The notes beneath the pieces were generated by a model. That model made no database searches, was not told the DNA's origin, and saw only the letters and a program-made list of their open reading frames with translations. A stretch of DNA of 64,000 nucleotides from Alphaproteobacteria bacterium (GTDB taxonomy: Bacteria; Pseudomonadota; Alphaproteobacteria; UBA828), in contig JAJEEP010000040.1 of the NCBI GenBank assembly GCA_022820945.1, positions 47,536-111,535 on the forward strand, written 5' to 3'. Positions 1-32,140 of this stretch are shown here, one piece after another. Each line of letters opens with the position of its first letter. Position 1 is the stretch's first letter. The position numbers and the translations under genes are program-made.

Positions 1-2
1 AT

Positions 3-713
3 GTCTCCTTCGACGTCCATGCCAATCAGGTCACGGCGATGATCGGCCCGTCTGGCTGCGGCAAGACAACGATGCTCAGGCTGATGGCGGGGCTCGAATA
101 CCCCTCGCGCGGCGACGTGACCATGTTCGGCCAGCGGATCATGGGGCCGGGGCCCGAGCGCGGCATGGTATTCCAGGCTTACACCTCGTTCCCCTGGCTC
201 ACCACGCGGTCCAACATCGAGTACGGGCTGAAGCTCCAGGGCCTCTCGAAGGCGGAGCGGCGCGAGCGCGCCGAGCACTTCCTCGAGCTGGTGCATCTGG
301 AGGGGTTCGCCAACGCCTATCCGGCCGAGCTTTCCGGCGGCATGAAGCAGCGCGTCTCCATCGCGCGCACGCTGGCGCAGAATCCGGCGCTGCTGCTGCT
401 GGACGAGCCCTTCGGCGCGCTCGACGCCCAGGTCACCTGGGAAATGGAGGAGATGATCATCGAGATCATCGAGCGCGAGAACAAGACGGTGGTCGTGGTG
501 ACCCACGACATCCAGGAGGCGATCTACCTCGCCGACAGGATCATCTTCTACACACGGCAGCCGGGGCGGATCAAAGCCGACCTGCCGATGGCGTTCAAGG
601 AAGGCCGCCGCTTTCAGAAGAAGGAGGAGATGCTCGTGCATCCGGGCTACGTGGACATGGAGCGGCGGCTCTACGCGATGATGCGCGAGGAAATCCGGGG
701 GCGGGTCAGCTAG
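3..713 (+). CDS. NitT/TauT-family ABC transporter ATP-binding subunit (5' truncated by window edge)
   Basis: Frame is open from position 3 (VSFDVHANQVTAMIG...). Walker A GPSGCGKT, MVFQ..FPW, signature LSGGMKQR, Walker B LLLLDEPFGALD, H-loop VTHD. Confidence 0.93.
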   Translation, partial: VSFDVHANQVTAMIGPSGCGKTTMLRLMAGLEYPSRGDVTMFGQRIMGPGPERGMVFQAYTSFPWLTTRSNIEYGLKLQGLSKAERRERAEHFLELVHLEGFANAYPAELSGGMKQRVSIARTLAQNPALLLLDEPFGALDAQVTWEMEEMIIEIIERENKTVVVVTHDIQEAIYLADRIIFYTRQPGRIKADLPMAFKEGRRFQKKEEMLVHPGYVDMERRLYAMMREEIRGRVS

Positions 714-755
714 GGACCGCCTCCACGGTCAACCGGAGAAAAGGGAGAAACGAAC

Positions 756-1796
756 ATGCTGTGGCGAACATCCATCATGACACTGGCGGCCTGCGCGCTC
801 GCGCTCGGCGTCGTCGGCGCCGCGAGCGCGAAGGACACCGTAAGGGTCGCGCACTTCAGCTGGCCGGGCTACGGCTTCCTCCACATCGCCAAGGCGAAGG
901 GCATGCTGCCCGAGAACATGGACCTCGAAATCTCGATCATCGAGGACCCGGTGCAGAGCATGGGCCTGCTCGCCAGCGGCCAGCTCGACGTCGTGACCAG
1001 CACCATCGAGTTCGGCCCGATTGCGCTGGCCGAGGACATGCCGGTGAAGCTGCTCGGCCTCACCAATCTCGGCAACGGCTCGGATCGCATCATCGTGGGC
1101 CCAGACATCAAGGAGCCGGGGGACCTGAGGGGCAAGAAGGTCGGCGTCATCGAAGGCGGGCTTTCGCAGATCTACATGGCGATCTGGCTGGAGCAGCAGG
1201 GCATCAAGTGGGACGAGGTGGAGATGGTGAACCTCTTCCCGGATGCCGCCGCAGCCGCGATGATCGCGGGTCAGCTCGACGCCGCCGAGCTCTGGGACCC
1301 CTACGGCCCGCAGGTGCTGGAGGAGCTCGCAGGCTCGCGCGAGATGAGCCATTCCGGCGAGGAATACTGGCTCAAGGAAGGCCTGATCGCCGACGCGATC
1401 TTCGTCTCCGACGCGTTCATCGCGGAGAGCCGCGACCTGCTGGTGGCGCTGATCAAGTCCCGCTACGAGGCGGTCGAGTGGTGGCGCGAGAACCCCACCG
1501 AGGGCAATGAAATGATCGCCGGGATCCTGCAGTGGGGCGTGCCGGACGTGGAGCCGATCCTCGGCGGTGTGAACAACCCCGACGACGGCACCCTCTACAT
1601 GTATAGTCTGGAGGAATCGGCGCAATTCTGCGGCGTTGCCGAGGGCGAGCCGCCCTTCGGCCAGCGCAACGGCCAGCTGACCGATCACTGGGAGCTCACC
1701 AACAAGTGGTGGTTGACCTTCGGCCTGATGACCGAGACGGTCGCTCCGGCGGAGGGGATCGATTGCTCGATCCTCAAGGACGCGCTCGGCGGGTAA
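756..1796 (+). CDS. ABC transporter substrate-binding protein, NMT1/THI5/SsuA-like
   Basis: N-terminal signal peptide ending ASA, WPGY motif, DLRGKKVG, LDAAELWDPY. GGAG RBS upstream; follows the TauT-type ATPase. Confidence 0.88.
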   Translation: MLWRTSIMTLAACALALGVVGAASAKDTVRVAHFSWPGYGFLHIAKAKGMLPENMDLEISIIEDPVQSMGLLASGQLDVVTSTIEFGPIALAEDMPVKLLGLTNLGNGSDRIIVGPDIKEPGDLRGKKVGVIEGGLSQIYMAIWLEQQGIKWDEVEMVNLFPDAAAAAMIAGQLDAAELWDPYGPQVLEELAGSREMSHSGEEYWLKEGLIADAIFVSDAFIAESRDLLVALIKSRYEAVEWWRENPTEGNEMIAGILQWGVPDVEPILGGVNNPDDGTLYMYSLEESAQFCGVAEGEPPFGQRNGQLTDHWELTNKWWLTFGLMTETVAPAEGIDCSILKDALGG

Positions 1797-1802
1797 GGTT
1801 GG

Positions 1803-1836
1803 GATGCGGGCGGCGCCACCGGGGCGCTGCCCGTAT
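1803..1836 (+). promoter_or_regulatory. intercistronic stem-loop between the SBP gene and tmoA
   Basis: GATGCGGGCGGCGCC...GGCGCTGCCCGTATC pair with G-U wobbles. No U tract, so more likely an mRNA-stabilising or processing hairpin than a terminator. Confidence 0.45.
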
Positions 1837-1865
1837 CGCCCGGTACGGACCAGGGAGACGATCGA

Positions 1866-3386
1866 ATGGCGCTGCTTGAGATGCACGAATGGTACGACCT
1901 CGCGCGGGATACCAACTGGACTCCCGGCTACGTCGCCGAAGAGGAGATCTTCCCGCCGGAACTGAGCGATCCCTACGGGATTTCGGTCGAGCAATGGGAG
2001 ACCTTCGACGAGCCCTACAAGGTCTGCTACCGGGACTATGTCGAGACCCAGCGCGACAAGGACATCGGCGCCTATTCCGTGAAGTCGGCGCTGGCGCGCG
2101 CGGACTTCTTCAAAAAGGCCTCACCGCACTGGAAGGCGCTGCTCGCGCTGCACTTCAGCCCGATCGGCTTCGCCGAGTTTCACTCGGCGTCCGCCTTTGC
2201 GCGGATGACCCGGTTCAGCCGTGCGCCGGGGATGCGCAACATGGCGACCTTCGGCACGCTGGACGAAATGCGTCACGGCCAGATCCAGATGTATTTCGCC
2301 TACGAGTTCATCAAGCAGGACCGCGTCTTCGACTGGGCGCACAAGTCGTCGAAGACCGAGAACTGGATCATCATCAGCCTGCGCCATGCGCTGGATGACA
2401 TCGAGCACACGCGCGACGCCATCAGCGCCGCGATCATGACCAACTTCGCCTTCGAGCAGGGCTTCACCAATTTGCAATTCATCGGGCTCTCGGCGGACGC
2501 CGCGAAGGCCGGCGATCACACCTTCGCCACCATGCTGCAGAGCATCCAGACCGACGAGGCGCGGCACGCGCAGATCGGCACGCCGCTCATCAGCATCATG
2601 ATCGAGAACGGGCGCAAGGCGGAGGCACAGCGGCTGGTCGATATCGGCTTCTGGCGCATCTGGAAGCAGTTCTCCGCGCTCAGCGGCATCTCCATGGACT
2701 ACTACACGCCGCTGGAGTTCCGCGAGCACTCGCTCAAGGAGTTCATGCACGAGTGGGTGGTCGATCAATTCGCCCGTAATATGAAGGCGATCGGCCTCGA
2801 TCTGCCTTGGTACTGGGACTACTTCCTCCACGATATCGAGACCTTCCACCACTCGCAGCAGATTGGTGTCTATGTGTACCGCGCGACGGAGTGGTGGCGG
2901 CCCATCGCCTGCGTCTCGCCGGCCGAGCGCGACTGGCTGGAAGAGAAATATCCGGGCTGGAACGACACCTACGGCAAGTGCTGGGACGTGGTGATCGACA
3001 ATATCCGGGGCGGCCGCTTCGAGAAGACGGTGCCGGAAGTGCCGCCGCTGATCTGCAACATGTGCGGGCTGGAGGTCACCGGGATGGGCGGCGCAGGCCG
3101 GCAAGTGAACGGGCGGCGGTGGAACGCCACGGACTTCCACCTCGATCACGAAGGCCGGCGCTATCACTTCTGCTCCGAGCCCTGCAAATGGGTCTTCGAG
3201 CTGGAGCCCACGCGCTACCAGGGGCACCGCAGCATCATCGACCGCGTGCTGGACGGCACCGTGCCGCCGGGCCCCGACGCCTTCTACGAGTACATGGGCC
3301 AGAGCTTCGAGGAGCGCGGCGTTTGCGGCTACGACTACCAGTGGATCGACGGCTACGACCTGCCGCGCGCCGCGGCGGCGGAGTAG
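1866..3386 (+). CDS. tmoA: soluble di-iron monooxygenase hydroxylase alpha subunit (toluene/aromatic-alkene monooxygenase group) with C-terminal YHS domain
   Basis: Di-iron ligands E104, E134, H137 (DEMRH), E197, E231, H234 (DEARH) and T201-N202 fall at T4MO numbering. Start WYDLARDTNWTP, WLEEKYPGW, YHFCSEPCKWVFE. Confidence 0.95.
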   Translation: MALLEMHEWYDLARDTNWTPGYVAEEEIFPPELSDPYGISVEQWETFDEPYKVCYRDYVETQRDKDIGAYSVKSALARADFFKKASPHWKALLALHFSPIGFAEFHSASAFARMTRFSRAPGMRNMATFGTLDEMRHGQIQMYFAYEFIKQDRVFDWAHKSSKTENWIIISLRHALDDIEHTRDAISAAIMTNFAFEQGFTNLQFIGLSADAAKAGDHTFATMLQSIQTDEARHAQIGTPLISIMIENGRKAEAQRLVDIGFWRIWKQFSALSGISMDYYTPLEFREHSLKEFMHEWVVDQFARNMKAIGLDLPWYWDYFLHDIETFHHSQQIGVYVYRATEWWRPIACVSPAERDWLEEKYPGWNDTYGKCWDVVIDNIRGGRFEKTVPEVPPLICNMCGLEVTGMGGAGRQVNGRRWNATDFHLDHEGRRYHFCSEPCKWVFELEPTRYQGHRSIIDRVLDGTVPPGPDAFYEYMGQSFEERGVCGYDYQWIDGYDLPRAAAAE

Positions 3387-3395
3387 GCGGTTCCC

Positions 3396-3656
3396 GTGTC
3401 CGATATCCCGCTCGCCGTGCTGCTCGAGGGCGACTACGGCTACAAGGTGCAGGTCTTCGATACCGGCGACACCATGGCGGTGCTGGCGGAGAAGGTGGCC
3501 GATCAGGTCGCGGGCGTCCTGGTGGCGCCGTTCCCGCCCGAGGCCGTTCTCAGGGTCCGCGTGCAGGGCAGCGCAGACCCGCTGCCTGACGAGCTGACCA
3601 TCGCCGACGCCGGCTTCGTCGAGATGGAGTCCGTGGAAATATACCGCGCCGGCTGA
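3396..3656 (+). CDS. tmoB: monooxygenase hydroxylase gamma subunit (TmoB-like, ubiquitin-like fold)
   Basis: 86 aa directly after tmoA. PL...EGDY...V.DT.DTM..LAEKVA...AG..V and LTIADAG..EME.VEI patterns. Confidence 0.88.
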   Translation: MSDIPLAVLLEGDYGYKVQVFDTGDTMAVLAEKVADQVAGVLVAPFPPEAVLRVRVQGSADPLPDELTIADAGFVEMESVEIYRAG

Positions 3657-3687
3657 GCAAGCCGCGGCCGGTGAGGAGGAGACGAGC

Positions 3688-3981
3688 ATGACGACGGCAG
3701 ACGACGCCGGCAATCTCGTGGGCCCGGTGATGCGCGCGGGCGACATCGCGGACGCGGTGCTCGAGGCGATTCAGGAGGACAACGAGGGGCGCGAGGTCAT
3801 CACCGAGGCCCACGCGTCCTACATCCGGATCAAGGTCGCGGACGAGTGCTTCGTGCGCTTCGAGACGGTGGGCGACGCGCTTGGCCGCGCCGTCACACTC
3901 GGCGACATCGAGGCGAACATGCCGAGCTTCGCAGGGTTCATCCGCACCGAGCCGGACGGCATCCGGTTCGTTGCGCGCTAA
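3688..3981 (+). CDS. tmoD: monooxygenase effector/coupling protein (MmoB/DmpM/TmoD family)
   Basis: VGPVMRAGDIADAVLEAIQEDN, YIRI, ALGR, MPSFAG.I. Strong GAGGAG RBS. Confidence 0.92.
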   Translation: MTTADDAGNLVGPVMRAGDIADAVLEAIQEDNEGREVITEAHASYIRIKVADECFVRFETVGDALGRAVTLGDIEANMPSFAGFIRTEPDGIRFVAR

Positions 3982-4248
3982 GCCCGGATTTCTCACCAAT
4001 GTCACGGCCTGCGTCGCGCCCAGACGTTCGATCCGCTAGGAGAGGGCCGAAAAGCGTAGCGGGGACTACGGTTGAGGCCCGCCACGCCGCGGGCGGGCGT
4101 CTGGGCGCGACCCGAAGGGCGCCGCTCTCCGGCCGACAGCGTGCGTCACGGAGCTTGCCCGATGTCCCCGCATCGCGCTGCGCGCCGCTCCTACTCTGTC
4201 GGCCGGACAGCGACGCGCAGACCATGACATTGGTGAGAATTCCGGGCT
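3981..4248. mobile_element. MITE-like non-coding element with 33-bp terminal inverted repeats and two internal hairpin arms
   Basis: 3981-4013 AGCCCGGATTTCTCACCAATGTCACGGCCTGCG matches the reverse complement of 4216-4248 at 30/33. Internal arms: 4013-4026/4098-4111 (14/14) and 4123-4139/4196-4212 (16/17). Confidence 0.72.
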
Positions 4249-4262
4249 AGGGAGGCAGGGAC

Positions 4263-5252
4263 GTGGCGGTCGAAGTCAAAGGCATGAAGACGTGGAGCGG
4301 GCTCGCCAAGAAGCGGCGGCGGCCCAGCGAGTACGAAGTCGTCACCACCAACCTGCAGACCCGCACGCGGCACCCGAACCAGGCCTACGAGCTCTCGCCG
4401 GCGCCCGACCTGGAGATGAACGAGTTCTACAAGCGCAACGTCTCCGAGAGCCCGCTGCAGCATCCGGACTGGGAGGGTTTTCGCGACCCGGACGAGATGA
4501 TCTACCGCGTCTACACGCGGCTTCAGGACCAGCAGGAGCAGTACGTCGACGGCCTGCTCGACGAGCACAACGAGATCGGCCACGACGCGACGCTCAGCGA
4601 CGCCTGGCTCGACGTGCTGGAGCGGCTCTACACGCCGCGGCGCTTCCTGCAGATGGCGCTGCAGATGGGCGCGGCCTACCTCGTGCAAATTGCGCCGGCG
4701 AGCACCATCACCGCCTGCGCCGGGTTCCAGGACGGCGACGAGTTCCGCTGGCTCTCCCGCTGCGCCTACCGGGCGCGCGAGCTCCAGCGGGCGCACCCTT
4801 CGCGCGGCTTCGGCCAGACCGAGCGCCGCACCTGGGAGGAGGAGCCCGCCTGGCAGGGCTTCCGCGCGCTGCTGGAGAAGACGCTGGCCACCTACGACTG
4901 GGGTGAGCACTTCGTGGCGCTCAACCTGGTGGCCAAACCGGCGGCGGACGAGGCGCACCGCCAGCTCGGCCGCGTCGGGCGGCGCTTCGACGACGGGCTG
5001 CTCGGGTTGATGGCCGACAACCAGATGCGGGACAGCGAGCGCTCGCGGCGCTGGAGCGCGGCGCTCGTCGCCTTCTCGCTGGAGAACGAGGCGAACGCCG
5101 CCGTCCTCAACGGCTGGATCGACAAGTGGATGCCGCTCGCGCGTCAGGCGGTCGATACCTATTGCGGCGCGCTGCCGGAGCAGGACGACGCGGCGGACGC
5201 GGCGCTTGGCGCGGTCGAGGCCTTCCACCGGAGCCTCGGTCTCGACGCTTAG
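4263..5252 (+). CDS. tmoE: soluble di-iron monooxygenase hydroxylase beta subunit (copy 1)
   Basis: KTWS.L...RRRPSEYEVVT, SPLQHPDWEGFRDPD, QIAPASTIT.CA.FQ, WEEEPAWQGFR.LLEK.L..YDWGE.FVALNLVAKPA. Confidence 0.93.
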   Translation: MAVEVKGMKTWSGLAKKRRRPSEYEVVTTNLQTRTRHPNQAYELSPAPDLEMNEFYKRNVSESPLQHPDWEGFRDPDEMIYRVYTRLQDQQEQYVDGLLDEHNEIGHDATLSDAWLDVLERLYTPRRFLQMALQMGAAYLVQIAPASTITACAGFQDGDEFRWLSRCAYRARELQRAHPSRGFGQTERRTWEEEPAWQGFRALLEKTLATYDWGEHFVALNLVAKPAADEAHRQLGRVGRRFDDGLLGLMADNQMRDSERSRRWSAALVAFSLENEANAAVLNGWIDKWMPLARQAVDTYCGALPEQDDAADAALGAVEAFHRSLGLDA

Positions 5253-5265
5253 GGCGTTTCCGCCG

Positions 5266-5955
5266 TCACCACGGGATGATGGTGCGCTCGGGCGCGTGCC
5301 AGAAGGCGGGTTGTGCGCCGGGCTCGGCGGGCTCCACCCGGTCGATGCGCTCGATCAGCGCAGCAGCGGCTTCCTCCGGCGGGCGCGCCTCGTGGCGCTC
5401 GTCGTCGAAGGTCATGGCGGTCGCCACCATGCCGGGGTGCAGGACCATCGCAGCGATGCCGCGCCGCGCCAGATCGTGGGCGAGGTTGACCGCCACCATG
5501 TTGGCCGCGCACTTGGAGATGCGATAGCCGTAGAGCCCGCCCGAGCGGTTGTCGCCGAGCGAGTCGATGCGGCTGGTGATGAAGGCAACCGTCGACCCGG
5601 GCTTGAGGCGATCCAGCAGCGCCTCGGTCACGCGGAGGGGCCCAAGGGCGTTGACCTCGAACTGCCGGCGGATGGCGTCGTAGTCGAGCGCGCCCAATGC
5701 GTCGCGCTCGGCAATCCCGGCGTTGTTGATGAGCAGGTCGAGGGTTGTGCCCGAGCCCGCGAGCCGTCCGGCGAGGCCCTGCGCAGCCTGGTCCGAGGTC
5801 ACGTCCACGCCGGGCTCGACCCTGATCCCAAGCGCCCGCAGCTCATCGGACTCGCCCAGGCAGGCTGCGATGACGGCGTCACCGCGCGCGCGGTAAGCGC
5901 GGCAGAGCGCGTTGCCGATGCCGCGATCGGCGCCCGTGACCAGGACGGTGCTCAC
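5266..5955 (-). CDS. short-chain dehydrogenase/reductase (CsgA/C-factor-like)
   Basis: TGADRGIG, LINNAG, catalytic YRISK, LHPGMVATAM. Confidence 0.9.
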   Translation of the reverse strand: MSTVLVTGADRGIGNALCRAYRARGDAVIAACLGESDELRALGIRVEPGVDVTSDQAAQGLAGRLAGSGTTLDLLINNAGIAERDALGALDYDAIRRQFEVNALGPLRVTEALLDRLKPGSTVAFITSRIDSLGDNRSGGLYGYRISKCAANMVAVNLAHDLARRGIAAMVLHPGMVATAMTFDDERHEARPPEEAAAALIERIDRVEPAEPGAQPAFWHAPERTIIPW

Positions 5956-5985
5956 GGCGCGGCCCGCCGCCCCGGCCCGCGTCGT

Positions 5986-8001
5986 TCAGGCGACGCGGAG
6001 CGTCGGCTGCTCGTTGCGCGCCTGCCCCGGCACCTCCCAGTGGGCCGCGGTCCGGCGCCGCAGCATGTCGCGGAATTGGCGGGTGGTGTTGGGCAGAAGC
6101 TCACCGGTGCCCCAGTCCACGATCACGCCGTACTGGCGGATCAGGTCGAGCGCGTCGAGCTCCTTGCTGCGGTACCTGGCGGCGATGTCTTCCGCATCCA
6201 CGTCGAGCCAGGCGTGGCGCTGGGTGCGGATGCGCTCGCGCTCGGCCGCGGTCGCCGCCTCGTCCACCTCGTACTCGGCGAGGTCGGCATCGATCTCGCG
6301 GACCACGACGCCGTAGTCCTTCTTCGCCCGCTCGATGGAGACGTAGCCGTCGGCCACGTCCTCGCACACCGTCGCAGGATCGCGGGTGAGGGGGTCGCCG
6401 AGACCTCCGCCACCGGCCGACGGCCGCGTCACGGTGTCGCCCGCTTCCACCGGCACGCCGGAGAAGATCGAGCCCAGGTAACGCTCGCCCTGCGTGCCGG
6501 GATTGACCCAGACGCCGTGCGGGATCGACGGCAGGCCGCCCCAGAGGCCCCAGGTCACTGAGCGCTCGCGGTCGCAACAGTAGGAGACCACCGAGCGCTC
6601 CGCCTTGGTTAGGATCGCGCCCTTCTCGACGCCGAGGCCGCCGCGCGAGTTGCCCGGCCCGCCGGAATCGACGATGAGCTCGTGGCCGGTGGTCAGCACC
6701 GGGGCCAGCCGCTCCTGCCCCTCGAAGGGCTGTGTGCCGAGCTGGACCCCGAAGACCGGCCCGGTGGCGCCCCAGCCGTCGCGGCCGTTGCGCGCGCCCC
6801 AGCCGCCCACCATCCAGTCGTACCACATGAAGTAGGGGCGGTCCTCCTTGCGGCCGTCGCGCCCGCCGATGAGCAGGTATTCCAGGTTGAAGGTGCAGGC
6901 CATAGCGCGCTCGGGCAGAATTTCGGCCCAAAGCTCGAACACCGAGTTCATGATCTTCTCGAAGGGGCCCGAGCAGAAGCCGGCGACCGGCGTCGGCCAG
7001 TCCGCGTTGACCACAGTGCCCTTGGGTCCGAGGTCCACGGTGACCACCCGGTAGAAGCCGGAATTTAGCGGGATGTCGGGCGATTGCATCTTGGTGCCGG
7101 CGACGATGGCCGCGAACGCGCCGCCGTAGCAGCAGTTGAGGAAGGTCGAGATCGTCTTCGGGTGCGAGCCGGAGAGGTCATAGTGCACGCTGTCGCCGTC
7201 GATGGTCATCTTGATGCGGATCGGGATCAGCCCCTCGCCGGCGACCGGGTCCACGTCGATGTAGTCCTCGGTCTCCCACACGCCGTCGGGCAGCCTGGCG
7301 ATGCGCTGGCGGGTCAGCGTCTCGACGTAGTCCTGCACCTCGGCGAAGGAGGTCTGGATCACGTCGACGCCGTACTTGTCGCAGAGCCGGCCGATCTCCC
7401 GCTCGGCGACGTTGCAGGCCTCGGCCTGGGCCTGGAGGTCGCCGATGATGTCGGCTGGCGCGCGGGTATTGTTGGCGATCAGCTCGGCCACGTCGGAGAG
7501 GTACTCGCCCTTGCTGTAGACCCGGACCGGCGTGATGCGCAGCCCCTCGGCCATGTGGTCGAGCGCGCTCACGTTGAACGAGCCCGGCACCGCGCCGCCG
7601 ACATCGGCCCAGTGGCCGTTGGCCTGGGAAAAGCCCAGGTGGATGCCCTTGTAGAAGATGGGGCGGACGATGCGTGTGTCGTTGAAGTGGGTGCCGCCCT
7701 GGTAGACATCGTTCACGACGAAGGTATCGCCGGGGTGGATGTCGTCGCCGAACTTGTTGATGACGGCCTGGGCGGTGTAGTGCAGCGTGCCCACGTGGGC
7801 GGCGATGTCGCCCGAGCCCTGCATGATGGTGTTGCCTTCGGTGTCGCAGATCGCCGAGGAAAAATCCCGGGACCAGATCACGAAGGAGTAGCAGGTGCGG
7901 AAGATCTGCTCCGCCATCTGGTCGACGATGTTGACGTAGGCGTTCTTGAGCACCTCGAAGGTCACGGGGTCGAGCGTGTAGCCTTCTCCGTTCTTGCTCA
8001 T
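5986..8001 (-). CDS. hydantoinase B/5-oxoprolinase-family subunit (ATP-dependent cyclic amidohydrolase, pair 1)
   Basis: LDPVTFEVL, RDFSSAI, NDVYQGGTHFND, HWADVGG..PGS, EGLRI.PV, DSGGPG..RGGLG, GGGG.GDP..RDP, A..DYGVV. Start placed at ATG 8001 behind GAGGAAG. Confidence 0.92.
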   Translation of the reverse strand: MSKNGEGYTLDPVTFEVLKNAYVNIVDQMAEQIFRTCYSFVIWSRDFSSAICDTEGNTIMQGSGDIAAHVGTLHYTAQAVINKFGDDIHPGDTFVVNDVYQGGTHFNDTRIVRPIFYKGIHLGFSQANGHWADVGGAVPGSFNVSALDHMAEGLRITPVRVYSKGEYLSDVAELIANNTRAPADIIGDLQAQAEACNVAEREIGRLCDKYGVDVIQTSFAEVQDYVETLTRQRIARLPDGVWETEDYIDVDPVAGEGLIPIRIKMTIDGDSVHYDLSGSHPKTISTFLNCCYGGAFAAIVAGTKMQSPDIPLNSGFYRVVTVDLGPKGTVVNADWPTPVAGFCSGPFEKIMNSVFELWAEILPERAMACTFNLEYLLIGGRDGRKEDRPYFMWYDWMVGGWGARNGRDGWGATGPVFGVQLGTQPFEGQERLAPVLTTGHELIVDSGGPGNSRGGLGVEKGAILTKAERSVVSYCCDRERSVTWGLWGGLPSIPHGVWVNPGTQGERYLGSIFSGVPVEAGDTVTRPSAGGGGLGDPLTRDPATVCEDVADGYVSIERAKKDYGVVVREIDADLAEYEVDEAATAAERERIRTQRHAWLDVDAEDIAARYRSKELDALDLIRQYGVIVDWGTGELLPNTTRQFRDMLRRRTAAHWEVPGQARNEQPTLRVA

Positions 8002-8023
8002 CTTTTCTTCCTCGCTCTCTGCG

Positions 8024-10078
8024 TCAGCCTTCGGCCTGCGGGATGTGCATGACGATGGTGTGCCAGGGGTCGACCTCGGCCTTGAGGCCGGGCGGCACCA
8101 GCACCGTTGAATCGAGCTGCTCGATGATCGCCGGCCCTTCGACCACCGCGCCGGCGTGCAGGGCATCGCGGTCGTAGATGGGCGTCACGATCGGATCGGG
8201 CGCCTCGTCGAAGACCACCGGCCGCTCGGTCTCGGGCGCCGGCGCCGAGCGGTCCATCTCTTCCTTCGCGAACTCGGCCTTCTGCGAGAGCCCGGTCGCG
8301 GTGACGGTGAGGCGGTAGATCTCGACCGGCGCGTCGGGCCTCGAATAGTTGTGCTCGCGGCCGTGCTCCTCGTGGAACTGGGCGATGGCGGCTTCGAGCG
8401 AGCCGGCGCTTGCGTCCACCTTGATCGACATGGAGCGCCACTGGCCGAGATAGCGCATGTCGACGAAGCGCTCGAACTGCATGCGGTCCTCGGTCACGCC
8501 CTCGTGCAGCAGCCGCTGGCGGCCCTCGTCCTCCAGCGTGCTGAAGGTCTGCTCAATCTCCTCGATCTTGGCGTCGTCGGTGGAGCGCAGATACATCTGC
8601 GACATGTCGTGCTTGATATCCACCAGCAGGCAGCCGAGGGCGGACGTGACGCCGGGATTCGGCGGAACCAGCACGGTCGGGATCGAGAGGTCGCGGGCGA
8701 GCGCCACGCCATGCAGCGGCCCGGCGCCGCCGAACACGGTGAGCGCGAAGTCGCGCGGGTCGTAGCCCCGGCGGATCGAGACCAGGCGCACGGCGTCCGC
8801 CATGTTGGCGTTCGCCACCTGGAGGATGGAGACCGCCGCCTCCTGCACGGAGAGCCCGAGCGGGTCTGCGATGCGGCGCTTGATGGCCTCCTCGGCGAGC
8901 GAGCGGTCCAGGGTGACGGCACCGCCCGCGAGCCGGTCGCTGATGCGGCCGAGGACGATGTTGGCATCGGAGTTGGTGGGCTCCACGCCGCCCCGGCCGT
9001 AGCAGGCGGGCCCCGGCGACGAGCCTGCCGACTGCGGCCCGTTGCGGAGCGAGTTGGCCTCGTCGATCCAGGCGAGCGAGCCGCCGCCCGCGCCGATCGT
9101 CAGCACCTCGATGCTGGGGAAGCAGATCGGGTAGCCGTACTGCACGTACCAGTCGGTGGTGACGCGCAGGTTGCCCCGGTCGCAGAGCGAGACGTCGGTG
9201 CTGGTGCCGCCCATGTCGAGGCTGATGGAGTTCTCGTAGCCCGCGAGCTGGGCGACGAAGCGGCTCGCGATGGCGCCCGCCGCGATGCCCGAAGCGGCGA
9301 GCCGGGCTGCGAACTTCGCCGCCGTGCTCTCGGTCATCACGCCGCCGCCGGAGTGCAGCAGCAGGATGTCCTCCTCGTAGCCGCCTTCGCGGAGCCGGTT
9401 GGCGAGGCGCCCCACGTAGTCGCCGGCGACCGGCGCGAGCACCGCGTTCGCCACCGTGGTCGAGAAGCGCTCGTGCTCGAAGATCTCGGGCATGATCTCG
9501 CTGGAGAGCGAGATCGACGCGCCGGGCACTTCCTCCTCGAGGATGTCGCGCATGCGGCGCTCGTTCTCGGGATTGGCGAAGGCGTTGGCGAAGCAGACCG
9601 CGATGGTCGTCACGCCGCGCTTGTTGATGATGCGGGCGGCCTCGCGCGCCTCCGCCTCGTTCACCGGCTCGATGACCGCGCCGCTGTAGTCGATGCGTTC
9701 GCTGACCACCAGGCGGTTGCGGCGCTGGATGTAGGGCGGCGCCATCTCCTTGTAGGTGTCCCAGAGGTCGTCGCGGGTGCCGCGCCGGATCTCGATCACG
9801 TCGCGGAAGCCCTTGGTGGTGACCATGATCGCGGGCGGGAAGTTGCGGGTAATCAAGGCGTTGGTGGCGAGTGTGGTGCCGTGAGCGAAGAGCACCATGT
9901 CCTGGAGGTCCACCCCGCCGGCCCTGATGCCCTCCAGCACGCCGTCGATGGGGTCGGGTGTCGTCGGGGTCTTGGCGACGCGCATCTGGCCGGACGCCTC
10001 GTCCAGGACGCACACGTCGGTGAAGGTGCCGCCGACATCACACGCGACGCGAACGGCCGCCCTCGAAACGTCATTCAT
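8024..10078 (-). CDS. hydantoinase A/5-oxoprolinase-family ATP-binding subunit (pair 1)
   Basis: DVGGTFTD, HGTT.ATNA, DMGGTSTDVS, IGAGGGS, GPQSAGSSPGPACYG.GG, FGGAGPLH, DMRY.GQ, GPAIIEQ.DST. Start placed at ATG 10078 behind GGAGAGG. Confidence 0.93.
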   Translation of the reverse strand: MNDVSRAAVRVACDVGGTFTDVCVLDEASGQMRVAKTPTTPDPIDGVLEGIRAGGVDLQDMVLFAHGTTLATNALITRNFPPAIMVTTKGFRDVIEIRRGTRDDLWDTYKEMAPPYIQRRNRLVVSERIDYSGAVIEPVNEAEAREAARIINKRGVTTIAVCFANAFANPENERRMRDILEEEVPGASISLSSEIMPEIFEHERFSTTVANAVLAPVAGDYVGRLANRLREGGYEEDILLLHSGGGVMTESTAAKFAARLAASGIAAGAIASRFVAQLAGYENSISLDMGGTSTDVSLCDRGNLRVTTDWYVQYGYPICFPSIEVLTIGAGGGSLAWIDEANSLRNGPQSAGSSPGPACYGRGGVEPTNSDANIVLGRISDRLAGGAVTLDRSLAEEAIKRRIADPLGLSVQEAAVSILQVANANMADAVRLVSIRRGYDPRDFALTVFGGAGPLHGVALARDLSIPTVLVPPNPGVTSALGCLLVDIKHDMSQMYLRSTDDAKIEEIEQTFSTLEDEGRQRLLHEGVTEDRMQFERFVDMRYLGQWRSMSIKVDASAGSLEAAIAQFHEEHGREHNYSRPDAPVEIYRLTVTATGLSQKAEFAKEEMDRSAPAPETERPVVFDEAPDPIVTPIYDRDALHAGAVVEGPAIIEQLDSTVLVPPGLKAEVDPWHTIVMHIPQAEG

Positions 10079-10244
10079 GCTTAACGGTCCTCTCCCACTT
10101 GATCTCGCGACCGACCGCAGCCGCTTTTTCCGGCGGCGCAGCATATGCCGTGAGCGTCCCAAGGCCTAGGGCGCTATGCGACTTGTCGGGATCGCGGCCA
10201 AACGACGAAGGGACGAGACACCAGGTCGAATGTGGCTCTATCTA

Positions 10245-11713: not shown

Positions 11714-13294
11714 TCAGAAACTCAGGCGCTTCAGGTCGATGACGGCGGCGCGTGACCGGAGCTGGGCCTCCACCTCGTCCGGCACCACCGAATCGACGCC
11801 GATGAGGCCGATCGCGTCGCCGCCCGGTTCTCTCCGTCCGAGATTGAAGGTGGCGATATTGATGCCGGCCTCGCCGAGGATCGTTGCCACCGCGCCGATC
11901 AGACCCGGCCTGTCCTCGTTGGTGAAGTAGAGCATGTGCGGGCCGAGTTCCGCTTCGATCTCGATGCCCTCGATTTCCACGATTCGCTGCCCGCCCCGGC
12001 CGATGAGCGTGCCTGCCACCGTCTGCGCGTGCTCTTGCGACAGCACTTCGACCCGCATGAGAGTCCGATAGTCCGCCGTCATCTCGCTCCTGACTTCGCG
12101 TACGGTGATGCCGCGCTCGCGGGCGATGAAGGGGGCGTTGACGATGTTGATGTCGTCGAGGCGCGGGGCGAGCAGACCCTGCAGGGCGGCGGCGGTGAGC
12201 AGCCGCGAATCGAGCGCGCTGGCCTGGCCTTCATAGGCGACCGTGACGCCGTGGATGCGGCCTGCCGCGATCTGCCCGGCGAAGCTCCCGATCTGCTGGG
12301 CGAGGGTGAGGTAGGGCCCGAGCTTCGCCATGTCCTCCGGCGCGACCGACGGCGTGTTGACCGCGTTCAGAACCGTGCCGGTCAGCAGGTACTCGGCCAT
12401 CTGCTGCGCGATCTGAACCGCGACGTTCTCCTGCGCCTCGACGGTGGAGGCGCCGAGGTGCGGCGTCGCAATCACCTCGTCTCGGGCAAAGAGCGGGTTG
12501 TCCTCCTGCGCGGGCTCCTCCTCGAACACGTCGAGCGCGGCACCTGCCACGTGGCCGCTCTCGATGGCGTTGATCAAGGCCGACTCCACGACCAGCCCGC
12601 CTCGCGCGCAGTTCACGATGCGGACGCCGGGCCTGGTCTTGGCCAGCGCATCGGCGTCGATGATTCCCCGCGTCTCGTCCGTGAGAGGGACGTGCAGGGT
12701 GATGACGTCGGCCTCGCCGAGCAGCTCGTCCATCGTCGCCAACGTCACGCCCAGGGAGGCGGCGCGGTCCGGCGAGAGGTAGGGGTCGAAGGCGACGACC
12801 CGCATCTTGAGGCCCTGGGCCAGGGTCGCGACAATGGCGCCGATGGTGCCGCAGCCGACGACTCCCAGCGTCTTGTCGCGCAGCTCCACGCCCATGAAGC
12901 GGCCGCGCTCCCAGCTGCCCTTGCGGGTGGAGCGGTCGGCCTGCGGGATGCGCCGTGCCAGCGCACACATCATGGCGATGGTGTGCTCGGCGGCGGTCAC
13001 GGAATTGCCGTGGGGCGTGTTCATGACCACGATGCCGCGCTTGGTCGCGGTGTTAATGTCGACGTTGTCGACACCGGTGCCAGCGCGGCCCACGACCTTG
13101 AGCCGGCTCGCCTGTGCCAGCAGATCCGGGGTCACCTTGGTCGCAGAGCGGACCACGAGGCCCTCGTAGTCGCCGATGATCTCGGCCAGCGCCTCGGGCG
13201 CGAGGCCCGGTTGAACGCTCACCTCGATGCCGCGCTCGGCGAACGCCTGCACGGCGACCTCGCTCACCTCGTCTGCGATCAGGACTCTCGGCAT
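11714..13294 (-). CDS. serA: D-3-phosphoglycerate dehydrogenase
   Basis: VRSATKVT, GRAGTGVDNVD, NTP.GN...AEH, G.G.IG, NCARGG, TPHLGASTVEAQ, C-terminal ASB and ACT domains. Confidence 0.96.
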   Translation of the reverse strand: MPRVLIADEVSEVAVQAFAERGIEVSVQPGLAPEALAEIIGDYEGLVVRSATKVTPDLLAQASRLKVVGRAGTGVDNVDINTATKRGIVVMNTPHGNSVTAAEHTIAMMCALARRIPQADRSTRKGSWERGRFMGVELRDKTLGVVGCGTIGAIVATLAQGLKMRVVAFDPYLSPDRAASLGVTLATMDELLGEADVITLHVPLTDETRGIIDADALAKTRPGVRIVNCARGGLVVESALINAIESGHVAGAALDVFEEEPAQEDNPLFARDEVIATPHLGASTVEAQENVAVQIAQQMAEYLLTGTVLNAVNTPSVAPEDMAKLGPYLTLAQQIGSFAGQIAAGRIHGVTVAYEGQASALDSRLLTAAALQGLLAPRLDDINIVNAPFIARERGITVREVRSEMTADYRTLMRVEVLSQEHAQTVAGTLIGRGGQRIVEIEGIEIEAELGPHMLYFTNEDRPGLIGAVATILGEAGINIATFNLGRREPGGDAIGLIGVDSVVPDEVEAQLRSRAAVIDLKRLSF

Positions 13295-13319
13295 CGCCTC
13301 CGGACCTCCGCTGAGCGGA

Positions 13320-14489
13320 TCAGCCCACTCCCTGCCGGCGCACTTCGTCCCAGGCCCAGTCGAGCCACGGCGTCAGCGCTTCGAGATCGTCGCGTTGCAC
13401 CGTGCCGCCGCTCCAGATTCGAAGCCCCGGCGGGGCGGCTCGGTGGGTCTTGATATCATATGCGGCGTTCTCCGCCTCCAGCAGCGCGCACATGCGCTTG
13501 ATCGCGGCCCACTGCTCGTCGGTGCCGAGATCGCTGAACCAGGGGTCCACGATGCTGAGGCACACCGATGTGTGGGAGCGGGTCTCCGGCGCCGCGGCCA
13601 GGAAGTCGATCCACGCGCGCTCCGCGACCCAGGCCTCGATGACGCCGAAGTTGGCCTGCGCCCGCGCGATCATTCCATCCCGCCCGCCGATGGACTCGAT
13701 CCAGCGGAGCGCGTCGAGCGTGTCCTCGATCGCCATCATCGAGACCGTGTTGATGGTCTCGCCCCGGAAGATGCCCTCGTTGAGGCGGCCGTCGCCGGTG
13801 GTGAGCCGGAACACCCTTGGCACCGGCCAGGGCGGCGGCGCGCTCTCCAGCCGCTCCACCGCCCGCGGGCCCAGGATCAGCATGCCGAACCCGGCTTCGC
13901 CGCCCAGCGCCTTCTGCCAGGAGTAGGTGGTGGCATCGAGCCTGGTCCAGTCCATCGGATAGGCGAGGACGGCGGAGGTGGCATCGCAAAGCGTGAGCCC
14001 GGCACGGTCGGCGGCGATCCACTCGGCATCGGGCACCCGCACGCCGGACGTGGTGCCGTTCCAAACGAATACCGTGTCGCGGTCCGGATCGACCTGCGCG
14101 AGGTCGGGCAGCCGGCCGTAGGGCGCGTCGATCACGCGCGCATCCAGCGGGCGCAGCTCGCGTTCACCGTCGATGGCCCAGAGCGCACCGAAATTGTCCC
14201 AGCGCAGGAAGTCCACTCCGCGCGGGCCGAGCAGCGACCACATGGCCATCTCGATGGCGCCCGTATCGGAGCCCGGCACGATGCCGAGGCGCCACTCATC
14301 CGGCAGGCCGAGCAGCGCGCGCGAGCGCTCCAGCAGCTCCTGGATTCGCGCCAGCGGTTCCCTCGCCCGGTGAGACCGGCCCAGCAGCGCGCCCGAGAGG
14401 ACATCGACGGACCATCCAGGGCGCTTGGGGCAGGGCCCGGAGGAGAAGAGCGGATTGTCTGGACGGACGGTGGGCTTCATGGGCGGCAC
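13320..14489 (-). CDS. serC: phosphoserine aminotransferase (Methanosarcina/alphaproteobacterial type)
   Basis: FSSGPC.KRPGW, GRSHR, PGSDTGA.E, WNGTTSGV, DATSA, PLP lysine in SWQK. Directly upstream of serA; alternative ATG at 14480. Confidence 0.95.
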   Translation of the reverse strand: MPPMKPTVRPDNPLFSSGPCPKRPGWSVDVLSGALLGRSHRAREPLARIQELLERSRALLGLPDEWRLGIVPGSDTGAIEMAMWSLLGPRGVDFLRWDNFGALWAIDGERELRPLDARVIDAPYGRLPDLAQVDPDRDTVFVWNGTTSGVRVPDAEWIAADRAGLTLCDATSAVLAYPMDWTRLDATTYSWQKALGGEAGFGMLILGPRAVERLESAPPPWPVPRVFRLTTGDGRLNEGIFRGETINTVSMMAIEDTLDALRWIESIGGRDGMIARAQANFGVIEAWVAERAWIDFLAAAPETRSHTSVCLSIVDPWFSDLGTDEQWAAIKRMCALLEAENAAYDIKTHRAAPPGLRIWSGGTVQRDDLEALTPWLDWAWDEVRRQGVG

Positions 14490-22448: not shown

Positions 22449-22647
22449 GGTGCGACTCCGCGCGAATACCGACCGGGGCTCGTCATTCTTTGATGCGTGT
22501 CGCGGAGTCAAGGAATTGGAGGGAGAGGCATATCTCCGGCGGAAAAGGTAATGCCCCAGCTTGCGTGCGCCGGGGTGGGCGGGGACAATCGCCTCGCCCG
22601 GCGCACCCGCGTGCCGCGCGTGCCTGTTAGGCGACGGTGACCGTCCC

Positions 22648-23640
22648 ATGAGCGATCAGTCCGACCTGTCGAAGCCGTTGAAGACCTGGAGTCATCTCGC
22701 CGGCAAGCGGCGGCGGCCGAGCGAGTACGAGATCGTCTCGACCAATCTGCTCTGGAGCACCGACGACGAGATGCCGTGGGCCCTCTCGCCCGACATCGAC
22801 ATGAACAAGTGGTATCTCCGATACCGCAACAACTCGCCGCTCAAGCACGACGACTGGGACGCGTTCCGCGACCCCGATGAGCTGGTCTATCGCTCCTACA
22901 ACGTCATGCAGGACGGACACGAGACCTATGTGGACGGGCTGATCCGCGACCACGCCAAGAACGATCACGACAAGGGATTGGGTGCGGACTGGGTGGCGGC
23001 GTTGGCGCGGTTCTACACGCCGACGCGCTATCCGCTCCACTGCCTGCAGATGGGCTCCGCCTATCTGGTGCAGATGGTGCCGGCGAGCACGATCGAGAAC
23101 TGCGCGATGTTCCAGGCGGCCGACCAGCTCCGCTGGGTCTCGCGCGTGGCCTACCGCACGAAGGAGCTCGCCAACACACACGCCGATGCGGGCTTCGTCA
23201 GCGGCGAGCGCAAGGCGTGGGAGGAGGATGCCTGCTGGCAGGGCTTCCGCGAGCTGCTGGAGCGCGTCCTCGTCGCCTACGACTGGGCGGAGCATTTCGT
23301 CGCGCTCAACGTCGTCGCCAAGCCAGCGTTCGACGAGGCCTGCGTCCGTCAGCTAAACCGCGCGGCCCGGAGCAACGGCGACACGCTGCTCGCCCAGATG
23401 CTCGACGCGCAGTGGGAAGACTGCGAGCGCTCGAGGCATTGGACTCAGGCGCTCGTCGAGTTCGCAGGCGCGGCCGAGGGCAATGCTGAGGTCATGGCGG
23501 ACTGGGTCGCGACGTGGGCGCCCTTGGGCGATGCCGCCATCGACGCTTACTGCGCCGCGCTGCCGGACAATGCAGGAGCTGCAGACGAGGCGAAGGGCGC
23601 GGCGAGTGCCTTCCGCGCTTCGCTGGGCTTCACGGCCTGA
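22648..23640 (+). CDS. tmoE: second, orphan soluble di-iron monooxygenase beta subunit
   Basis: KPLKTWSHLA..RRRPSEYEIVS, SPLKHDDWDAFRDPD.LVYR.YN.MQDG.E.YV, PASTI.NCA.FQAAD.LRW, WQGFRELLE. Start placed at ATG 22648. Confidence 0.92.
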   Translation: MSDQSDLSKPLKTWSHLAGKRRRPSEYEIVSTNLLWSTDDEMPWALSPDIDMNKWYLRYRNNSPLKHDDWDAFRDPDELVYRSYNVMQDGHETYVDGLIRDHAKNDHDKGLGADWVAALARFYTPTRYPLHCLQMGSAYLVQMVPASTIENCAMFQAADQLRWVSRVAYRTKELANTHADAGFVSGERKAWEEDACWQGFRELLERVLVAYDWAEHFVALNVVAKPAFDEACVRQLNRAARSNGDTLLAQMLDAQWEDCERSRHWTQALVEFAGAAEGNAEVMADWVATWAPLGDAAIDAYCAALPDNAGAADEAKGAASAFRASLGFTA

Positions 23641-30652: not shown

Positions 30653-30670
30653 CCCCGCAGCATGGTGCGG

Positions 30671-30686
30671 TGCAAAGCACGCGCCG
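30671..30686 (-). promoter_or_regulatory. candidate sigma54 (-24/-12) promoter
   Basis: Minus strand CGGCGCGTGCTTTGCA against consensus TGGCACGnnnnTTGCW, with exact GG-N10-GC spacing. Confidence 0.45.
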
Positions 30687-30877
30687 GTTGCGTCAGCATC
30701 GCGCCATGCAGTGTGCAAACGAGCAAGCCGCGCAGGACGCCGACCGTCCCGCAGAATCCCACTTTGTCCCGCTTCCGCTTCAAGCCCCGCCCGCCTCGTG
30801 CGTGCTGCCCCATCTGGACCCTGCGCAGCCACGTGGCCATACTGGCGAAGCGCTGCCAGGGAGAAGGAGCCTCATCC

Positions 30878-32014
30878 ATGCCGTCGATTCCGTCCGCCTT
30901 GGACATCACCCGCGACATCGTCCGCATGGACACCCGCAATCCTCCTGGCCGCGAGGTGGAGTGCGCCCATTACCTGGGCGACATGCTGAGTGCGGCGGGG
31001 ATCGAGGTCTCCTACTACGAGTTTGCGCCGGAGCGGACCAGCCTAGTGGCGGTGCTGCGGGGCGAAGGCGGGAACGGCAAGAAGCCGCTCTGCTTCGGTG
31101 GGCATATCGACGTGGTGCCGCTAGGCGCCAAGGAGTGGTCTGTCGATCCCTTCGGCGCGGACATCGTGGACGGCAAGCTCTTCGGCCGCGGCACCACGGA
31201 CATGAAGGCCGGGATCTCCGCCTTCGTCCATGTCGCGCTCAAGCTTGCGGCCGAGGACAAGCGCGGCTCGGCGGACATGGTGATGGCGATTTGCGCAGGT
31301 GAGGAGACCGGCTGCGAAGGCTCCTACCACCTGGCCGAGATCGGCGCGCTGGGCGAGGCAGGCGCCATCGTCATTGCCGAGCCGACCTCGAACTATCCCA
31401 ACCTCGGTCACAAGGGCGCGCTTTGGCTCAGAGTGGAGACCGAGGGCATCACCTCCCACGGATCGATGCCGGAGCATGGCGACAATGCGATCTACAAGGC
31501 GGCGCGCTCGGTAACCAAGCTCGAGGAGTTCGATTTCAACGTGATGCCCCACGAGCTGCTCGGCCGGTCGACGCTGAACGTCGGCACCATGCAGGGCGGG
31601 CTCAACCTAAACTCGGTGCCGGACCACGCCGAGTTCACCATCGACATCAGGACACTGCCCGAACAGAACCACGCGGAGATTTTCTCAGGCCTGGAGGGGT
31701 ATCTCGGCGACGAGAACAAGATCGCCCGCGTCGTCGATTGCGGTGGCGTGCACACCCCGCACACCCATCCCTGGATGCAGGAGATCTACGAGGTGATGGA
31801 GCGGGTCCTCGGCGAGAAGATCGAGCCGCGCGGGGCGCCCTACTTCACCGACGCTTCGGCGCTGACGCCGGCGTACGGCCGCCCGCCGACCGTCATTCTC
31901 GGGCCGGGCGAGATGCATATGGCGCACCAGACGGACGAATACTGCCCCGTGGCGCACGTCGAGCAGGCGGCGGAGGTTTACGAGATTCTGGCCCGCAGCT
32001 GGTGCGGCTACTGA
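30878..32014 (+). CDS. M20-family metallo-amidohydrolase (ArgE/DapE-like)
   Basis: GHIDVVP, GRGTTDMKAG, GEETG, IAEPT, HGSMPE.G.NAI, AHQTDEY. Start at ATG 30878 behind AAGGAG. Confidence 0.92.
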   Translation: MPSIPSALDITRDIVRMDTRNPPGREVECAHYLGDMLSAAGIEVSYYEFAPERTSLVAVLRGEGGNGKKPLCFGGHIDVVPLGAKEWSVDPFGADIVDGKLFGRGTTDMKAGISAFVHVALKLAAEDKRGSADMVMAICAGEETGCEGSYHLAEIGALGEAGAIVIAEPTSNYPNLGHKGALWLRVETEGITSHGSMPEHGDNAIYKAARSVTKLEEFDFNVMPHELLGRSTLNVGTMQGGLNLNSVPDHAEFTIDIRTLPEQNHAEIFSGLEGYLGDENKIARVVDCGGVHTPHTHPWMQEIYEVMERVLGEKIEPRGAPYFTDASALTPAYGRPPTVILGPGEMHMAHQTDEYCPVAHVEQAAEVYEILARSWCGY

Positions 32015-32140
32015 GCGGGGCCGGGGTCCGCGGACAGAGCCATCTGTGGACTCGGGCGCAGGCGCGGTTGTACGCTTTCGAATAGGGATACGGCAGCGCG
32101 GGCCGCGAGCGGCCGTGGCTGCGATGGGGAGGAAACCACC

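Follow-up and report, generated by a model that had tools for sequence, protein, structure and literature searches.

The window is a stretch of 64,000 nucleotides from an alphaproteobacterial genome of the UBA828 lineage (contig JAJEEP010000040.1, positions 47,536 to 111,535), and the subject of this analysis is the gene string at its start, 3..5252, in which the genes of an ATP-binding cassette (ABC) importer run into those of a toluene-type soluble diiron monooxygenase (SDIMO). The likely role of the enzyme is the first step in breaking down a small nitrogen compound soluble in water, and not a hydrocarbon. Genes were called using codon-position G+C together with Pfam and NCBIfam profiles; negative coordinates lie upstream of the window and were read from locus L001. 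The string and the genes leading into it are as follows.

-3072..-2356, + strand: AsnC/Lrp regulator (Pfam and NCBIfam)
-2310..-1075 (L001 15690..16925), + strand: protein of 411 amino acids with three RidA (L-PSP) domains, hereafter the RidA fusion
-1025..-144, + strand: TauC/SsuC-like ABC permease (PF00528)
3..713, + strand: ABC ATPase of the NitT/TauT type (PF00005, E 1e-31)
756..1796, + strand: substrate-binding protein (SBP) of the NMT1/THI5 (SsuA-like) family (PF09084, E 7e-16)
1866..3386, + strand: diiron hydroxylase alpha subunit, 506 amino acids (PF02332, Phenol_Hydrox, E 1.5e-70, plus a YHS domain)
3396..3656, + strand: hydroxylase gamma subunit, TmoB family (PF06234, E 1e-17)
3688..3981, + strand: effector protein, MmoB/DmpM family, TmoD-like (PF02406, E 3e-21)
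3982..4262, no strand: repeat of 281 bases with terminal inverted repeats, resembling a miniature inverted-repeat transposable element (MITE), between the effector and beta genes
4263..5252, + strand: hydroxylase beta subunit (PF02332, E 4e-59)

The six co-oriented genes of the initial annotation (ATPase, SBP, alpha, TmoB, TmoD and beta) were recovered on the + strand at the same coordinates, as were its gaps of 42 bases from 713 to 756 and 69 bases from 1796 to 1866. The 5' end of the ATPase gene lies about 130-150 bases upstream of the window and abuts the permease gene, and a polysaccharide-deacetylase-family (PuuE-like) gene lies upstream of the window, divergent from the AsnC regulator. 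A PF09084 binding protein, a PF00528 permease and a PF00005 ATPase encoded together make this a NitT/TauT-family importer, and beta, gamma (TmoB) and effector genes encoded with alpha give the subunit composition of SDIMO group 2. The gene string has no tmoC (Rieske ferredoxin) or tmoF (Fer2-FAD-NAD reductase) and does not have the ABCDEF operon layout.

The alpha subunit matched TouA of toluene/o-xylene monooxygenase (ToMO; 1t0q_A, E 7e-188) and TmoA of toluene 4-monooxygenase (T4MO; 3dhg_A, E 3e-178). Its identity was 53% to L082, a near-TouA sequence scoring 1149.5 bits to 1t0q_A and differing from it at positions 103 and 110, 56% to the aromatic toluene monooxygenase (TMO) of Paraburkholderia aromaticivorans (L081), which sits in a meta-cleavage cluster, 41% to IsoA, 40% to XamoA and 28% to DmpN. 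Two trees were built, one using FastTree (116 rows after collapsing 201 rows at 88% identity) and one using IQ-TREE in quick mode with LG+C20+F+G4 (66 rows chosen from those of the first tree); TouA was represented in both by L082, and TmoA, TbuA1, HpdA and PmlA sequences were not included. The branch to the DmpN outgroup was very long (length 10), so only unrooted statements are made. In both trees, the window alpha fell in a clade set off by a branch of support 100 (length 0.18 in the FastTree tree and 0.30 in the IQ-TREE tree). One side of that branch is made up of the loci with the nitrogen-related genes described below (12 labelled rows in the first tree and 15 in the second), and all reference enzymes, together with the genome's own second alpha subunit (alpha2), stand on the other. 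The alpha subunit is thus not nested among the toluene or isoprene reference enzymes, in line with the initial annotation, and the same support-100 separation keeps it out of the characterised aromatic TMO clade (TouA/TmoA type). By its sequence, it belongs to an uncharacterised clade of toluene-type SDIMOs.

The diiron ligands E104, E134, H137, E197, E231 and H234 were conserved in 100% of the clade, and T201, N202, Q204, Q228 and D211 were invariant besides. Active-site positions were compared between the aromatic TMO clade (34 rows) and the window clade (47 rows), with the following changes.

Position 107: A in the aromatic TMO clade, S in the window clade (98%)
Position 111: E in the aromatic TMO clade, F in the window clade
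Position 146: H in the aromatic TMO clade, Y in the window clade
Position 180: M in the aromatic TMO clade, E (62%, the window included) or A in the window clade
Position 192: L in the aromatic TMO clade, T in the window clade (55%)
Position 193: T in the aromatic TMO clade, N in the window clade
Position 198: T in the aromatic TMO clade, Q in the window clade
Position 214: E in the aromatic TMO clade, K or R in the window clade
Position 225: S in the aromatic TMO clade, Q in the window clade
Position 268: L in the aromatic TMO clade, Q in the window clade

The clade-specific polar changes in the diiron helices, A107S, M180E, T193N, T198Q, E214K/R, S225Q and L268Q, also set the window alpha apart from ToMO and T4MO. 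Positions 100, 103, 107, 176, 180, 192, 196, 201, 205 and 214 are ones that we take to shape the pocket or channel in T4MO and ToMO.

For gene linkage, 78 relative loci were taken from the genome collection and the window proteins were mapped to them using tblastn. Open reading frames (ORFs) of 47 clade loci and the window, 48 loci in all, were clustered, and the alpha subunits fell into 17 clusters at 88% identity. Short contigs and the ORF filters cause misses in the counts below; many loci are close kin, so that locus counts overstate independence and the alpha-cluster counts are fairer.

Beta subunit: 42/48 loci, 14/17 alpha clusters
Deacetylase-family hydrolase: 36/48 loci, 13/17 alpha clusters
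RidA fusion: 35/48 loci, 10/17 alpha clusters
AsnC regulator: 30/48 loci, 9/17 alpha clusters
NMT1 binding protein: 29/48 loci, 8/17 alpha clusters
M20 deacylase: 9/48 loci, 7/17 alpha clusters
TmoF reductase: 8/48 loci, 5/17 alpha clusters
Cupin-HTH regulator: 6/48 loci, 6/17 alpha clusters
CobW-type GTPase: 5/48 loci, 5/17 alpha clusters
Arginase-family genes, often a pair with HypA: 12/48 loci, 4/17 alpha clusters
Short-chain dehydrogenase/reductase (SDR): 14/48 loci, 1/17 alpha clusters
HydA/HydB (hydantoinase/oxoprolinase): 13/48 loci, 2-3/17 alpha clusters

The RidA fusion and the window-type SBP were found in 0/31 loci of other clades, one of which had a weak (22%) deacetylase-family match; the clade loci alone combine the RidA fusion, the deacetylase-family hydrolase, the AsnC regulator and the importer with the diiron enzyme. 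The association with an importer recurs across Alpha-, Beta- and Gammaproteobacteria, the importer genes being placed in four or more different ways. They lie upstream in the same orientation in the loci that group with the window, follow beta in L013, and are upstream but divergent in L017, L022 and the loci from Gammaproteobacteria. In L034 the NMT1-type ABC genes are of a different set and a formamidase-family gene is present, and in two loci an NCS1 nucleobase-type permease replaces the ABC importer. In one of these, L041 (Pusillimonas caeni), the permease gene is directly upstream of alpha, with genes for the glycine-cleavage P protein, serine hydroxymethyltransferase and serine dehydratase further upstream; in the other, L026 of the sister subclade, it occurs with a cyclase/arylformamidase-family hydrolase, a single-domain RidA and an M20 gene. 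L056, also of the sister subclade, has a single-domain RidA and a deacetylase-family gene, L016 has an Amt-family transporter upstream, and one arginase-family neighbour had HutG as its best match. The canonical TMO clusters that were examined contain either genes for meta-cleavage or those of a phenol hydroxylase, a sigma-54 regulator and a channel of the FadL/TodX type; none of these was among the ORFs scanned in the window clade, and no ring-cleaving dioxygenase was among the ORFs scanned in the clade and the RidA-fusion loci.

The linkage was also approached from the RidA fusion, which is rare and was found in 0/400 other sampled Pseudomonadota genomes at E<=1e-30. Metagenome contigs were scanned using an alignment of 11 RidA fusions, giving 80 loci: 41 with the diiron enzyme, 33 with too little flank and 6 that lack the enzyme despite 5 kb or more of upstream sequence. 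The diiron enzyme thus stands beside the fusion in 41/47 informative loci. Among the six exceptions, HpaB-type two-component flavin monooxygenase genes adjoin the fusion in L098, L103 and L105 (as they do in the short locus L097), an FAD_binding_3 monooxygenase gene is directly upstream of the fusion and hydrolase in L165, and L162 has the ORF layout of L165, judged on layout and not by profile scan. The sixth, L099, shows no oxygenase in view but has a dihydropyrimidinase/hydantoinase above cut-off and a TRZ/ATZ-family aminohydrolase. With either the diiron enzyme or a flavin monooxygenase at the fusion, the RidA-plus-hydrolase module follows a hydroxylase that can be of three unrelated kinds. 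Phenol hydroxylases show the same three-way pattern of types, which favours ring hydroxylation.

Some further features of these loci were recorded. L165 has a DUF1326 and PpoB2 gene pair (12310..13873) near its module, and in L098 bacterial microcompartment shell, aminotransferase and aldehyde dehydrogenase genes (5975..7611) lie upstream of the string of flavin reductase, RidA fusion and HpaB-type genes. Between the RidA fusions of the window's group and those of Gammaproteobacteria, residues 166-411 match 39-287 at 46% identity, whereas the colinear alignment reaches only 32%; the best alignment being shifted by one domain suggests a circular permutation of domain order.

The importer and the accessory proteins were compared with named families. 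The best NCBIfam matches of the ATPase were the SaoA, taurine and nitrate ATPases, all below their cut-offs, and those of the importer overall were taurine, sulfonate, nitrate and Sao systems. Assignment as TauABC or SsuABC failed: the SBP, which has a signal-peptide-like N-terminus, scored 41.7 against a cut-off of 304 (taurine) and 98.4 against 163.5 (TIGR01728, SsuA_fam), and the permease scored 99.8 bits against the taurine/sulfonate equivalog cut-off of 342. The nearest solved structures of the SBP were TauA (6ssy, E 1e-9), followed by SsuA, ThiY and NrtA, all too distant for the substrate to be named from the SBP. The deacetylase-family hydrolase matched PDB 3rxz at E 1e-58 and had PuuE allantoinase as its best named match (E 1.5e-24, below cut-off), and the RidA fusion matched the RutC model at E 6e-25, also below cut-off.

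Since the clade is inherited with importers and nitrogen-releasing hydrolases, its substrate is probably a polar nitrogen compound. We put a probability of about 0.62 on the reading that the hydroxylase (alpha, beta and gamma) and effector encoded here are those of a four-component toluene-type diiron monooxygenase initiating the breakdown of such a compound after its import. The NitT/TauT importer encoded directly upstream would bring in this small polar compound, for which an N-heterocycle or a ring of the guanidino/ureido type is most likely, and the diiron enzyme would hydroxylate it. The product may be a lactam-like or hemiaminal/imine tautomer, which the PuuE-like deacetylase-family hydrolase and the three-domain RidA fusion would open or cleave by hydrolysis; M20 deacylases, or nickel ureohydrolase pairs in other lineages, would act downstream with release of nitrogen, and the AsnC-type regulator would control the gene set. 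A small N-heterocycle or a guanidino/ureido compound is suggested by the transporter types (NMT1-type ABC and NCS1) and by the resemblances to hydantoinase and PuuE, and the HutG-like arginase-family match, the formamidase-family gene of L034 and the glycine genes of L041 point to the same class. Imidazole, 2-aminoimidazole, creatinine, hydantoin and pyrimidines are offered as guesses at the substrate. The proposal of the initial annotation, that this enzyme oxidises a polar, actively imported substrate rather than a hydrocarbon, is supported by comparison, through clade and linkage.

Several observations weigh against this reading. The alpha subunit is still a close ToMO relative and keeps the hydrophobic F196, F205 and L208, and the placing of the changed positions in the pocket lining is taken over from the T4MO/ToMO literature. 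The SBP is only distantly like any solved binding protein, and no accessory gene reaches an equivalog cut-off that names a reaction. In the third RidA domain of the fusion, PAATAV stands where PH0854 has PARVAV; the arginine of the PAR motif presumably binds the carboxylate of 2-iminoacids, and without it the classic deamination of 2-iminoacids cannot be taken for granted. The genes for ferredoxin and reductase are unlinked to the hydroxylase string, the MITE separates tmoD from tmoE, the RNA-library contigs described below may contain DNA and stem from related strains, so that they indicate presence and do not prove a single transcript, and the kinship among the loci tempers the linkage counts.

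Aliphatic C-H hydroxylation next to nitrogen, by which a methylated guanidine or guanidino acid might for instance undergo oxidative demethylation or deguanidination, would leave the substrate polar and imported but place the reaction elsewhere than on a ring; the RidA fusion would then speed hemiaminal or imine breakdown and nickel ureohydrolases would take the guanidine product. A pair of methylguanidine hydroxylase and hemiaminal lyase is described in PMC12508155. Within the clade, two arginase-family genes with HypA stand in the cluster in the 12 loci and 4 alpha clusters counted above, CobW-type GTPases occur in others, arginase-family and HypA genes recur in the metagenome loci, and E180 and K/R214 might bind a substrate that carries a charge. 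The window's genome has neither the ureohydrolase pair nor HypA, its only arginase-family match being 27-30% identical, and these genes are therefore accessory. The hydroxylases that replace the diiron enzyme at the RidA fusion are of the HpaB and FAD_binding_3 types, families that hydroxylate aromatic rings, and the toluene-type relatives are ring hydroxylases as well. We regard the aliphatic route as unlikely.

An ordinary aromatic or alkene monooxygenase of the toluene, benzene, phenol or isoprene type, standing beside an unrelated transporter and nitrogen genes, is very improbable. The strong similarity to ToMO and T4MO, database names that read 'toluene monooxygenase' and a convergent IsoH-like SDR gene downstream (262.7 bits) speak for it, but the clade is separate from the TouA-like, aromatic TMO, IsoA and XamoA references, the meta-cleavage, FadL/TodX, phenol hydroxylase and sigma-54 genes of canonical clusters were not seen among the clade ORFs scanned, and the linkage to importer and hydrolase holds across three proteobacterial classes. 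An isoprene cluster is not indicated either, with IsoA distant in the tree and the SDR below the NF049951 cut-off of 350 bits and restricted to one alpha cluster.

The ratio of nonsynonymous to synonymous substitution (dN/dS) was calculated against L006, L008 and L009, which have the same tmoC-less layout, and was 0.055-0.068 for alpha and 0.13-0.18 for beta; for the SBP it was 0.22-0.25 against these loci, within an overall range of 0.22-0.35. The genes are under purifying selection and are not a relic. Eight RNA-library runs held 5-15% of sampled words, and four of them, labelled sponge or marine metagenome and coming from three studies, were aligned. Contigs 90-99% alike cover ATPase to beta: X3 record 17 and X1 record 3 bridge the ATPase-SBP gap, X2 record 13 (1766-2065) bridges the SBP-alpha gap, X2 record 14 extends from alpha to within TmoB, and in an X1 contig 3980 is followed directly by 4262, the MITE being absent. 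Neither a terminator-like site on the + strand nor a sigma-70-like promoter was found in 1..6100, where both scans are weak at such G+C. The stop of transcription between the SBP gene and tmoA that would have spoken against the initial annotation was thus not seen, no + strand terminator being found and an RNA-library contig bridging the gap. Rfam at gathering thresholds on the window, L001, L027, L041 and L034 gave one tRNA only and no riboswitch or RNA regulator. That the window copy is a remnant in decay, which has lost the genes for its ferredoxin and reductase and received a MITE of 281 bases between tmoD and tmoE, is scarcely credible, as for all the lack of tmoC and tmoF in the string, every frame is open, every ligand intact, the alpha dN/dS low across relatives of the same layout, ferredoxin and reductase present in trans, and alpha to beta covered by RNA-library contigs.

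Other clade members have tmoC, and some also tmoF, inside the operon. The window's genome has a second diiron monooxygenase, of which alpha2 (52% identical to the window alpha), TmoB2, a Rieske ferredoxin and TmoD2 are encoded on contig C134 (L080 7694..10203), followed by BolA. The C134 Rieske gene is the genome's only TmoC-type gene, the next best match being 29% identical, and a single Fer2-FAD-NAD reductase, 35-39% identical to the in-operon TmoF of relatives, stands alone on contig C68. The C134 ferredoxin and C68 reductase are presumably common to both hydroxylases and would supply the electrons to the window's enzyme. The MITE-like repeat has eight near-full-length copies (78-89% identity) and fragments on other contigs; the tmoD-tmoE spacer is only about 12 bases in close relatives, and the family looks active in the window's lineage. 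The relatives L003 and L005 show extra spacer elsewhere in the cluster.

The remaining features of the window that bear on these systems are as follows.

5266..5955, - strand: IsoH-like SDR, convergent with beta (NF049951, 262.7 bits, below cut-off)
5986..10162, - strand: hydantoinase/oxoprolinase B and A pair, caprolactamase-like (PF02538, PF01968, PF05378; CapB model 336 bits and CapA 533 bits, cut-offs 1000)
22561..23640, + strand: lone beta subunit of the second diiron monooxygenase (PF02332, E 1e-69), 53% identical to the beta at 4263..5252
30662..32014, + strand: M20 deacylase of the ArgE/DapE family (TIGR01910, 250.8 bits, above cut-off 217.6)
32141..32899: hydantoin-racemase-family (Asp/Glu/hydantoin racemase) gene following the M20 deacylase (PF01177)

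The SDR and HydAB genes were considered as a pathway core and rejected, being confined to 1-3 alpha clusters and hence local neighbours; the xanthine-dehydrogenase-family and PEP-utilising genes upstream occur only in the window's close relatives. The M20 deacylase is the genome's nearest relative of the in-cluster M20 of other lineages (53% identity to that of L027), and a binding-protein gene also adjoins the M20 and racemase genes at 30662..32899. Hydantoinase/oxoprolinase genes are greatly expanded genome-wide, with 34 HydA-like and 43 HydB-like matches (tblastn, E<=1e-10), mostly as adjacent pairs, four of them on contig C119. The lone beta gene adjoins thiolase, enoyl-CoA hydratase and acyl-CoA dehydrogenase genes. 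Close relatives of the second enzyme (e.g., L062-L067 and L072-L078) are likewise beta-less, and distant ones (e.g., L059-L061) keep beta. In the other clade, L049 (5262..9604) and L053 (547..4895) have a tandem alpha-TmoB-alpha-TmoB duplication before Rieske, TmoD and beta.

Among known systems, ToMO (TouABCDEF of Pseudomonas sp. OX1) and T4MO (TmoABCDEF) share with the window the alpha, TmoB, MmoB/DmpM and beta families, the YHS tail, the six diiron ligands and T201/N202/Q228. The window alpha differs in being only 53-56% identical to the ToMO type and outside that clade, in an operon without tmoC and tmoF, and in its gene surroundings, which comprise importer, RidA fusion, amide hydrolase and AsnC regulator genes in place of the meta-cleavage, FadL/TodX channel and XylR-type regulator genes of canonical clusters. 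IsoABCDEF and XamoABCDEF have the same four-component architecture, and the convergent SDR resembles IsoH; their alpha subunits are 40-41% identical and far off in the tree, the SDR is below cut-off and found in one alpha cluster, and unlike in Iso clusters no glutathione transferase gene was among the window neighbours scanned. The 2-hydroxypyridine 5-monooxygenase HpdABCDE of Burkholderia sp. MAK1 and PmlABCDEF are soluble diiron enzymes reported to act on polar N-heteroaromatics (PMC8313251). HpdABCDE, which the initial annotation had named, may serve as a functional precedent for such substrates in this enzyme class. The Hpd pathway reportedly continues with a ring-cleaving dioxygenase, for which no gene was among the clade ORFs scanned.

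In Rut, imidazole and hydantoin catabolism (RutA-RutB-RutC; PuuE; HutG/HutI), the order from oxygenase to amide hydrolase to RidA-family protein to nitrogen release resembles that proposed here; the oxygenase of the window is a diiron and not a flavin enzyme, its RidA protein is a single three-domain chain, and no score is at equivalog level. The dimethylguanidine/metformin hydrolase operons (DmgH, MefH; Sinn et al. 2024, PMC11399263) resemble other clade lineages in having two arginase-family genes, HypA and a NitT/TauT importer, whereas the window's genome lacks the arginase pair and HypA, and the available passages of that source mention no monooxygenase.

The clade is common in marine and sponge-associated genomes and was found in sponge and marine RNA libraries; Zavarzinia aquatilis, Pusillimonas caeni, Sneathiella litorea and Limibacillus are cultured carriers. 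No published description of the clade or gene cluster was found in the literature searched. We tentatively suggest, as a possibility somewhat short of even odds, that this widespread marine and sponge-symbiont diiron family opens an undescribed dioxygenase-free route for an abundant polar nitrogen compound, in which hydroxylation would be followed by PuuE-like ring opening, the single-chain three-domain RidA protein and deacylases or nickel ureohydrolases; the end products would be ammonia, urea and a small acid, for example glycine. In annotation and in metagenome counts, toluene-type diiron monooxygenases serve as markers of hydrocarbon degradation. If the substrate is a dissolved nitrogen compound, such counts would misread this clade, a step so far missing from nitrogen recycling in the sea and in symbionts would become testable, and the enzyme family would have a wider substrate range, which may be of interest for biocatalysis.

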